From NCBI GenBank assembly GCA_964016885.1, contig OZ024743.1, forward strand, positions 351,354,001 to 351,418,000: DNA of 64,000 nucleotides, written 5' to 3'. Both the position numbers and the translations under genes were made by a program. The notes under the pieces are model-generated. The model searched no databases. It saw nothing but the letters and a program-made list of their open reading frames with translations, and was not told where the DNA came from. The DNA comes from Eledone cirrhosa (Eukaryota). Shown in pieces: positions 39,615-42,296 of the stretch (the first letter of the stretch is position 1; each line of letters starts with the position of its first letter).

Positions 39615-40846
39615 ACGGCTCTGTAGTATACTAGTTATCCTACATTGAGCTAAAACCACACTGTCATACCAAGGACAATATATCTGTGTGTCTGTGCACA
39701 TTAGTATAATTGGCAACGAAACTATCTATCTCTATATATATATATATGAAACAGATCTAGTTTTGTAGAAGCTATTTCTATATTTAATTTTGTTGCTTTC
39801 ACTCTACTAATTTCTTGAGTACCTTATTTACTGTGGTTACCCCTGATTGTACTCGGGATCGACTTATATATATATATATATATATATATATATATATATA
39901 TATATATATATATATATATGAATCATTCTCAAAAGTTAAGTGAGATGGAGAGCTGTATGCCTATATGATGATCTGTCCCGCATCTGTTATTTCGAGAAAT
40001 TTCTTTCCGTTTCATGCAAAAAACGTGGCCCAAATTACTATCTATTTAAAGTATAATTGGATTGGTTGTGGAAGTTCGTATGATTGTGTATACAGTTTTG
40101 CCAAAAATTGATGATCACATGATTAGGAATAGAATTTTTCTTGTAAATATTGCGCAAAAAATTGGAAATGTCATGCTTTAGTGAACGTGGCTAATGACAA
40201 TTTTCTATTGTTAAGTAGTCCAGTCTGTCTATAGAATTGTTTGTGGCATTCCCCTCCCAATTCTTTTTAAAGTGTAAAGAAAGATTATTCATTCATTTGT
40301 GTGTGAGGGGGGTGCAGAAATGGGTTTTTTCCTTACACTATTGGGATAATTCAAATTGAATTTTCAACTTCTTATTCCAATATTTTTATATTTTTACTCG
40401 AGTGAGATATAAAGAAATTTCTTTTTTATATATATATATATATATATATATATATATATATATATATATATATATATATATATATATATATATGTGTGTG
40501 TGTGTGTTTTGCAACGGGTCACTTTGTGGCTCAATGAAGAGTTAATAAATGAAATAATCAGAGCTATATATCATAAAACATGTCTATAGAATCACCAGAT
40601 GAAATATATACCGTTTCCTCTCCCAATTAGCATAATTAACCATATAAAAAATCGATTAGACCAAGCTATAATAATAAAGGCTTCTATGAAGAAATCTCCG
40701 ACAAATAACCGAAAGCAGCCCTTCGCGGCGGTTGCGACGGAGTATTTATCGAGTATTTCGACAGCGTGTATAAATCGTCCAGATATACAGTCAACTAAAC
40801 AGAATTAGATGTAAAATAAACTAGGAGAAAAGTGAACATATTTAGT

Positions 40847-40926
40847 TACCTCTACCATGGTTTCGTTCGCATTTTAAGATATCCGATAACATTGGACATC
40901 TGGAGCACTGGACTCTTCAGGAGTTA
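40847..40926 (-). ncRNA. Type I HHR, copy 1 (weakened stem II)
   Basis: Intact CTGAAGA/GAAAC-catg-GTA core; stem II gtcca/cgaac mismatched. Confidence 0.6.
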
Positions 40927-41621
40927 GCTCAAATTTAGTCAATTAATTTTCCAAAGTGATCGCGCCAAGAATACATTAAAAAATGGCTAAGAATCGTGAC
41001 GTAGCAGCGGTCAGGCTAGAAAGAATGTGATTAGTTGCTTACGGCTGGTGGCCTTTTGCTAGAAAGCGCAGCACAATACAGCCAAAATTGTATCTCAACC
41101 TAACGGGAGATTATTACATATAAAGGTTTACATATATATATATATATATATATATATATATATGTGTGTGTGTGTGTGTGTGTGTGTGTGTGTGTGTGTG
41201 TGTGTGTGTGTGTGTGTGTGTGTGTGTGTGTGTGTGTGTGTGTGTGTGTGTGTGTGTGTGTGTGTGTGTGTGTGTGTGTGTGTTTTGAAACGGGGCACTT
41301 TGTGGATCAATGAAGAGTTAATAAATTAAATAATCAGAGTTATATATCATAAAACATGTCTATAGAATCACCAGATAAAATATATACCGTTTCCTCTCCC
41401 AATTAGCACAATTAACCATATAAAAATCGATTAGACCAAGCTATAATAATAAAGGCTTCTATGAAGAAATCTCCGACAAATAACCGAAAGCAGCCCTTCG
41501 CGACGGTTGCGACGGAGTATCTATCGAGTATTTCGACAGCGTGTATAAATCGTCCAGATATACAGTCAACTAAACAGAATTAGGTGTAAAATAAACTAGG
41601 AGAAAATTGAACATATTTAGT

Positions 41622-41701
41622 TACCTCTACCATGGTTTCGTCCGCATTTTAAGATATCCGATAACATTGGACATCTGGAGCACCGGACTCTTCAGGAGTT
41701 A
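41622..41701 (-). ncRNA. Type I HHR, copy 2 (intact)
   Basis: ctc-CTGAAGA-gtccg...cggac-GAAAC-catg-GTA-gag. Confidence 0.85.
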
Positions 41702-41810
41702 GCTCAAATTTAGACAATTAATTTTCCAAAGTGATCGCGCCAAGAATACATTCAAAAATGGCTAAGAATCGTGACGATCACTTTGGAAAATTAATTGTCT
41801 AAATTTGAGC

Positions 41811-41890
41811 TAACTCCTGAAGAGTCCGGTGCTCCAGATGTCTAATGTTATCGGATATCTTAAAGTGTGGACGAAACCATGGTAGAGGTA
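41811..41890 (+). ncRNA. Type I HHR, copy 3 (intact, inverted)
   Basis: taactc-CTGAAGA-gtccg...tggac-GAAAC-catg-GTA-gaggta. Confidence 0.85.
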
Positions 41891-42296
41891 ACTAAATATG
41901 TTCACTTTTCTCCTAGTTTATTTTACACCTAATTCTGTTTAGTTGACTGTATATCTGGACGATTTAAACACGCTGTCGAAATACTCGATAAATACTCCGT
42001 CGCAACCGCCGCGAAGGGCTGCTTTCGGTTATTTGTCGGAGATTTCTTCATAGAAGCCTTTATTCTTATAGCTTGGTCTAATCGATTTTTTATATGGTTA
42101 ATTATGCTAATTGGGAGAGGAAACGGTATATATTTTATCTGGTGATTCTATAGACATGTTTTATGATATATATATATATATATATGGGGAGTGGGAGAGA
42201 GAGGGTGTGTGTGATAGAGATAGATAAATAGAATGATTGATTGAGAATGTTTATTTTGCCTTTGAGGAGTCAACACAATCTATCTTACTATAAATA

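Follow-up and report, generated by a model that had tools for sequence, protein, structure and literature searches.

The three copies of a non-coding unit present in the analyzed stretch of Eledone cirrhosa DNA (64,000 nucleotides, hereafter the window) represent a single insertion of a dispersed family without open reading frames. This family is very probably a non-autonomous element mobilized by Penelope-like enzymes and carrying a hammerhead ribozyme maintained by selection. It is also fairly likely that the unit spreads as a non-LTR retrozyme, the RNA of which would be cut, circularized, and copied into TA runs by a Penelope-like enzyme. The first-pass annotation of this DNA described a unit of about 500–620 bp, occurring twice in tandem and once inverted between (TA)n/(TG)n runs, and this arrangement was confirmed, the copies being 95%–97.5% alike. 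Its proposal of an independently amplified, non-autonomous tandem unit with a hammerhead and with a (CA)n/(TA)n tract inside the monomer is supported. The parts of the insertion are listed in Table 1; the unit is numbered q1–624 along the plus strand of copy 1, and the RNA sense runs from q624 to q1.

Table 1. Parts of the ribozyme-carrying insertion and their positions in the window
Feature	Position	Strand	Remarks
(TA)n target run and short (TG)n	40427..40507	.	RNA-sense 3′ end of the long arm, which stops inside the element's own spacer
Copy 1, whole unit q1–624	40508..41131	-	q1–57 is the tail, found at only some ends
Copy 1 hammerhead	40850..40930	-	predicted cut 40853/40852; two stem II pairs broken by private changes
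Monomer spacer	41132..41283	-	grown to 152 nt of (CA)n(TA)n
Copy 2, q1–494	41284..41776	-	5′-truncated at q494
Copy 2 hammerhead, intact	41625..41705	-	core 41695-41689 and 41639-41636; predicted cut 41628/41627
Copy 2 helices	stem II 41688-84/41644-40; outer hairpin 41676-69/41659-52; stem III 41636-29	-	
Predicted pseudoknot, copy 2	41678..41705	-	GAGC (41705-41702) with GCUC (41681-41678)
Copy 3, inverted arm q455–58	41775..42172	+	tail-less 3′ end enters (TA)n
Copy 3 hammerhead	41807-41887	+	predicted cut 41884/41885

The three window copies differ by 5/5/5 positions over q58–455 and thus form a star; the insertion is likely an aged product, the copies of which have drifted equally since insertion. 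In copy 1, two pairs of stem II have been lost since insertion through two private changes; the weakening of this stem had already been noticed, and the hammerhead fold of copy 1 has an energy of −6.1 kcal/mol versus −16.5 kcal/mol in copy 2. Both minus-strand cut positions predicted earlier (41628/41627 and 40853/40852) and the 775-nt interval between them are correct as coordinates. The predicted 775-nt monomer thus stands as an interval but not as a family length, since the spacer expanded to 152 nt in the window makes it atypical.

Exact matches to a 26-base 3′ motif and a 22-base 5′ motif of the unit were found 4,639 and 1,427 times in the 3.0 billion bases of the genome that were searched, with 0 matches for the controls. 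Two hammerhead patterns gave 247 and 543 exact matches, again versus 0 in controls, and the hammerhead motif is therefore not a product of chance. With the unit as the query, 3,186 first-look candidates were obtained, of which 40 were scored and gave 40 main matches at 94%–100% identity. We read 264 partly overlapping loci out of these thousands. An unbiased sample comprised 61 loci chosen by the 3′ motif alone, 9 overlapping loci having been dropped, and holds 66 insertions. The family is dispersed over many chromosomes as short arrays, and a tree of 130 near-full copies comprises many subfamilies, 68%–98% identical to the window copy. Contigs from three runs of one sample cover the unit with many variants and carry no information about expression. 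No protein is encoded: Met-started frames in the 130 copies have a median length of 40 aa and a maximum of 109 aa, the longest one in the window insertion has 69 aa, and an ORF-like frame on the plus strand of the unit was rejected, being interrupted by stops. The GC content of 14 monomers was 0.31–0.37, under the 45% limit for retrozymes. Some loci reflect segmental duplications, namely L051–L056 (G000:C1, 217.3–217.7 Mb), where the same insertion with its flanks is repeated six times, and L058–L059, where it is repeated two times.

The full hammerhead core CUGAAGA...GAAAC-CAUG-GUA|GAG, reported earlier for each copy, is present in all three. Stems I, II, and III surround the core, stem I being open, and 86%–100% of cells are paired per helix. 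The supposed loop of about 39 nt on stem II does not exist as such; in its place there is a 7-nt/7-nt internal loop followed by an 8-bp hairpin, and this fold is paired in 90% of cells across an alignment of 70 copies, taken from 109 listed copies that were mostly selected with core-containing patterns. The description of a minimal hammerhead with a palindromic stem III is accordingly right as to stem III but not as to the ribozyme being minimal, given the extended stem II and a predicted pseudoknot. In the latter, base pairing joins the internal loop's 5′ strand to GAGY just upstream of the 3-bp stem I; the stem I–stem II contact typical of type I hammerheads is thus present as a predicted pseudoknot, identified by covariation only. 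An Rfam search of 211 bases yielded Hammerhead_1 (RF00163) as the only match, on the correct strand, with 16.6 bits (E 0.21). The gathering score of 34 was not reached because stem II is long, and the alignment skipped a 41-nt insertion. In a scan of the whole window, no hammerhead was found among the 150 of 163 matches listed, all of them being microsatellite or hairpin matches. Since this form of the ribozyme scores under the Rfam threshold, such families are probably under-annotated.

When the pseudoknot is left out, a fold other than the hammerhead has the lowest energy (−21.5 versus −16.5 for the hammerhead), and the GAGC/GCUC helix is predicted to be able to close, alternatively, an inactive hairpin over the core. 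RNAalifold, run on the 70-row alignment, did not recover the hammerhead but another, weak fold (−2.67); since the columns it paired mismatch the alignment numbering, this result was set aside. The G10.1–C11.1 pair, the first of stem II and normally G-C, is present in the window, and in 37 unbiased copies of the family this pair is G-C in 11, A-U in 10, G-U in 1, and unpaired in 15; it is unpaired in whole lineages, which counts against full activity. Self-pairing of the window monomer is not strong (z −0.5 to −0.7). In the 14 of 21 monomers that were folded, 49%–69% of positions were paired, with z from +1.5 to −13 as estimated from 8 shuffles and confounded by TA runs.

In the core and stems I and III, 1 of 24 columns (a CpG site) has a second allele in at least three loci, versus 176 of 473 columns elsewhere (p=0.00035 in the unbiased sample, the columns not being independent). 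The free position N7 splits 22:19, while CUGANGA, GAAA, and UH of the core are conserved. From these comparisons of sequences, the hammerhead core and stems I and III are under purifying selection among lineages. Pseudoknot cells are paired in 89%–95% of cases, slid controls for the whole structure giving 28%–52%. Among 96 loci, in which the first three pseudoknot pairs were fixed by the search pattern, pair 4 is C-G in 65, U-A in 21, U-G in 4, and other in 6, and pair 5 is U-A in 28, A-U in 15, G-C in 8, U-G in 1, and U.U in 44. Along the tree pair 4 passes through U-A, U-G, and C-G, and pair 5 through U-A, U.U, A-U, and G-C; the covariation amounts to about three independent changes. In the 37 unbiased copies, the pseudoknot helix was 89% paired, and no shuffle reached the observed pairing or covariation score; the number of pair types was not above that in the shuffles.

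A search with the most distant copy, the own core of which is mutated, revealed a divergent lineage (L191–L220) located on many chromosomes and 68%–73% identical. This lineage keeps the CUGAUGA core in 25 of 30 loci and has a compensated 5-bp stem I, a 4-bp stem III, and U.U at the base of stem II; its stem III hairpin has an energy of −3.7 to −5.0 kcal/mol versus +2.9. Some of its members are fully palindromic.

The unit closes on itself, consisting of about 624 bases and a spacer. Past q1, the spacer was entered in all 114 cases; beyond this point, another unit follows in 45, the sequence stops after a short tail in 43, and in 26 it breaks off within the spacer. The cut-to-cut distance over 21 intervals was 640–919, with a median of 681. 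In several other subfamilies the spacer is non-repetitive and 27–28 nt long, and in the subfamily of the window it is an expanded microsatellite. In younger subfamilies, the non-repetitive spacer was observed to give way to (CA)n(TA)n tracts that reach 220 nt, so that the element seeds microsatellites.

Among the 66 unbiased insertions, 27 were inverted, 29 had a tandem arm, and 5 had two whole ribozymes in tandem. The 3′ ends of arms (n=93) were located at q58–62 in 56 cases, at q1–4 or in the spacer in 32, and elsewhere in 5; 54 of the 56 tail-less q58 ends enter TA, and the three end types all coincide with TATA motifs inside the element. Fixed 3′ ends, truncation to varying extents at the 5′ side, partial tandems, and an inverted 5′ copy, together with a tail of 57 nt plus spacer at one end and a microsatellite (TA) target, are features of the Penelope type and are those described for Penelope-like elements, for which a tail of 30–40 bp is given (PMC8557442, as far as the accessible text goes). 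Arms longer than one monomer account for 26 of 88, and some exceed three units (L076). Termination of arms is even round the unit (0.04–0.14 per 47 nt, 0.195 at the spacer) and doubles past 600 nt, from about 0.23 per 150 nt to about 0.5. The interval q341–350 at the cut site contains 1 of 219 internal 5′ ends (about 4 expected) and 1 of 330 3′ ends. The ends of insertions are not clustered at the cut site, and therefore cut linear RNA is not what integrates.

Copies within one insertion belong to one subfamily, with a mean divergence of 3.5%–3.8%, compared with 2.8%–3.1% for the nearest outside neighbors. Variants shared within a locus and private to it, that is, absent from all other sampled loci, were found at 14 of 10,377 sites in tandem pairs and 15 of 12,005 in inverted pairs, versus 4 of 44,815 in the nearest-neighbor control. 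Taken together (29 of 22,382 sites), such sharing is about 15 times more frequent than in controls. Counted per pair, it was detected in 21 of 75 within-locus pairs versus 4 of 150 controls, although the pairs are not independent. In tandems, 11 of the 14 shared positions lie 3′ of the cut site and 3 lie 5′ of it. A recombination scan of 66 long copies found no cluster of breakpoints at the cut site, the best gain being 7 sites. These sequence patterns indicate that one monomer version gave both copies, unless conversion homogenized them, as shared variants could come from gene conversion. The single-template signal and the pattern of ends fit, without proving, a circular template.

In the retrozyme reading, RNA read through those few insertions that carry two complete ribozymes would be cut twice; the pseudoknot would hold stem I to stem II, a role usually played by the loop-loop contact, and the monomer would then be ligated into a circle. 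A Penelope-like RT/GIY-YIG protein would nick (TA)n, and the freed TA ends could prime at internal UAUA sites (q58, the spacer, and q612). Copying beyond one lap would give partial tandems, and priming from both target strands would give inverted arms. Circles were proposed as templates for more-than-unit copies by Cervera and de la Pena (PMC4209133; also PMC7229834 and PMC6765202, in their accessible parts). We regard the circular intermediate as somewhat more probable than its absence. Cleavage would not necessarily require a dimer: a tetraloop-capped 2-bp stem III is the invertebrate type reported, in the accessible part of PMC7229834, to cleave efficiently. The GUA|GAG junction, suggested earlier as a marker, is not diagnostic of circles: the ligated junction is identical to the genomic sequence, and divergent primers also amplify tandems.

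The same Penelope-type element could instead be copied from linear uncut RNA slightly longer than one unit, with the reverse transcriptase jumping from the 5′ end to the terminal repeat and the ribozyme kept for another job, such as trimming read-through RNA, dimerizing, or binding a helper protein. Template jumps on linear RNA would give identical DNA products, and the insertion geometry and the single-template signal are explained equally well. The rise of termination beyond about one unit, the weak 10.1–11.1 pairs in successful lineages, and the few two-ribozyme donors (two whole tandem ribozymes in only 5 of 66 insertions, which counts against the retrozyme reading) all favor linear RNA, as does the spread of Naiads without canonical hammerheads described in PMC8557442 (accessible text). 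On the other hand, 5′ ends do not accumulate at any point that could mark a transcription start, termination around the unit being even; arms of more than three units exist; and an active mid-template ribozyme would destroy the sole template, although conservation is seen at the catalytic positions and N7 varies freely. A circle would explain the shared variants, the absence of ends at the cut site, and the course of termination, together with the retention of a mid-template ribozyme; jumps on linear RNA would explain all but the retention. We consider copying from linear RNA unlikely.

An autonomous Penelope-like element, of which the unit would be merely the pseudo-LTR and the copies the 5′-truncated ends, was the alternative that the first-pass annotation set against its own proposal. 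It was looked for and not found in the loci read, some 260 overlapping ones among thousands. The insertion pattern and the ribozyme type are indeed as in such elements. On the contrary, the tail leads to no ORF and is followed by the spacer in 114 of 114 cases; the upstream sequence is spacer, TA, or an inversion in 30 of 30 loci chosen by the 5′ motif, many of which overlap earlier loci; a profile search covering the window and the first 100 loci recovered only family copies and no diverged coding relative; and the family has its own tree across 30% divergence. The pseudo-LTR explanation is therefore largely refuted and very improbable, and a rare or diverged parent may be present elsewhere in the genome.

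Several further candidates for a partner were examined. The unit was compared with 29 stretches downstream of GIY-YIG motifs, belonging to families met in loci fetched for holding a copy, and 19 of them scored 23–31, compared with a null mean of 25 and a null maximum of 37. In the remaining 10, high scores came from a neighboring copy, which was antisense in 9; in the sole sense-oriented case (L064), the GIY-YIG frame is separated from the copy by a TA run and an inverted piece. Shorter-stem hammerheads with the same stem III gave 33 matches and were rejected as a route to a partner: reading 20 of the loci revealed family copies with deletions, other families, or chance matches, and no RT or GIY-YIG frame was found in the 11 of these loci with frames listed. 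The "different 5′ part" of L081 proved to be a nested repeat.

Neptune-like elements, assigned to this class by motif (CxxxxCxxC linker and GIY-YIG) after the accessible text of PMC8557442, are located in TA runs with inverted ends and their own short hammerhead at 26393–31225 and 31593–35317 of the window and at L263:1037–4024. They are abundant (36,342 first-look candidates). The L263 copy has a 995-aa open frame with an RVT_1 match (E 4e-4) below the cut-off, and GIY-YIG was recognized in a window copy (E 1.5e-4). Of 43 3′ ends of these elements, 12 are grouped at one site and 18 at another about 60 bases away, a spacing that resembles the 57-base tail of the ribozyme element. On this circumstantial evidence, the Neptune-like TA-targeting family is a candidate helper; no sequence link between the ribozyme unit and any helper was found among the families in the fetched loci. 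A third PLE-like insertion occupies 35413–39610 of the window. Its inverted arms are long; near 37015 it has a GIY-YIG frame that is broken, and at 39523 a hammerhead-like core.

More speculatively, the family could be a long-lived retrozyme lineage without a surviving parent, in which the circle would be primed directly at internal UAUA by both nicked strands of the TA repeat and the pseudoknot-braced hammerhead would have alternated between a 4-bp stem III sufficient by itself and a palindromic one gated by dimers. This combination is tentative and, taken as a whole, doubtful; if it is true, thousands of genomic copies record how Penelope-like elements make tandem and inverted ends.

A satellite or other DNA-level repeat, with tandems and inversions produced by local duplication and gene conversion and with a relic ribozyme, is also highly unlikely: microsatellite spacers favor slippage and conversion could account for shared variants, but fixed 3′ ends with random 5′ ends in short arrays on many chromosomes, as well as selection on the ribozyme, speak for copying via RNA.

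ORF-less hammerhead repeat families seem to be numerous in this genome. Others were observed at L104, L115, and L117, at L111–L112, at L061:3380–4080, at window positions 3686 and 14464, and at many further loci, some with a long stem II and a palindromic stem III and often as inverted pairs in TA runs. The window also contains a 700-aa stop-free frame with a rhodopsin-family GPCR domain (19942–22047, minus strand; PF00001, E 5e-12) and minisatellites at 15461–15855 (49 bp, 8 copies, 98%) and 60499–60944 (40 bp, 11 copies). About ten copies of a dispersed SINE-like repeat, 70%–97% identical, are located at 42293–42687, 7653–9120, 13860–14062, 49403–49691, 52552–52738, and 55461–56140; this repeat presumably carries tRNA-box-like sequence. 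No tRNA gene was found in the 64-kb window.

Comparisons with known systems refer to the accessible parts of the works cited. The minimal hammerheads found in pseudo-LTRs of PLEs (Cervera and de la Pena 2014, PMC4209133) are likewise of type I with a short stem I and a palindromic stem III; the unit described here differs in having stem III together with a 13-bp two-part stem II and a predicted pseudoknot, and in having no ORF attached. Perreault et al. 2011 (PMC3088659) reported that hammerhead pseudoknots are common and needed for fast cleavage. In about 40% of their representatives a 4–6-bp pairing between the regions of stems I and II replaces the loop-loop contact, as is predicted here; the combination of a pseudoknot formed from a stem II internal loop, a retroelement unit, and a minimal stem III is not described in that text. 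The U.U at the stem II base and the firmer stem III of the divergent lineage recall HHR_Amex2 of the axolotl (PMC7229834).

Non-LTR retrozymes (PMC7229834; 10.64898/2026.07.22.740005) share with the family an ORF-less head-to-tail unit carrying a single type I hammerhead, a low GC content, a copy number in the thousands, and co-existing Penelope-like elements. A monomer of about 650–700 nt exceeds the 170–400 nt of the 2020 paper (PMC7229834), but the observed lengths (640–919) are inside the 51–972 range of the 2026 preprint by Li, Clavereau and Pollet (10.64898/2026.07.22.740005), and size is thus not defining. In that preprint, animal retrozymes are argued to be non-autonomous PLE derivatives, only 1 of 9 predicted dimers of Xenopus cleaved, which counts against the retrozyme reading, and no mollusc appears among the 35 genomes in its accessible text. 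Unlike non-LTR retrozymes, the family has arrays of 1–3 units, inverted arms, TA targeting, an extended stem II with the predicted pseudoknot, self-pairing that does not appear strong, and no homologous pseudo-LTR found among the families in the fetched loci. Non-autonomous PLEs such as MRC1 and other Chlamys derivatives (PMC8557442) resemble it in 5′ truncation, partial tandems, an inverted 5′ copy, a tail at one end, and a microsatellite target. However, Chlamys derivatives generally resemble an autonomous family at the 3′ end, and no such partner was found here; most Chlamys are without canonical hammerheads, in contrast to the ribozyme under selection in this family.

Among cephalopod reports, the giant squid paper counted 235 Rfam hammerheads (PMC6962438), and the word ribozyme is absent from the accessible text of an octopus repeat annotation (PMC13282606). 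In the literature listings that were searched, no account of this family or of a pseudoknotted retrozyme hammerhead was found. The origin of tandem and inverted ends in Penelope-like elements and the role of their hammerheads are stated as open in PMC8557442; the family offers a small ORF-free substrate, many subfamilies, and a candidate helper with an open frame, and the choice between a circle and template jumps becomes directly testable. It is best read as belonging to the already known non-LTR retrozymes or non-autonomous Penelope-like elements, set apart by its unusual ribozyme.
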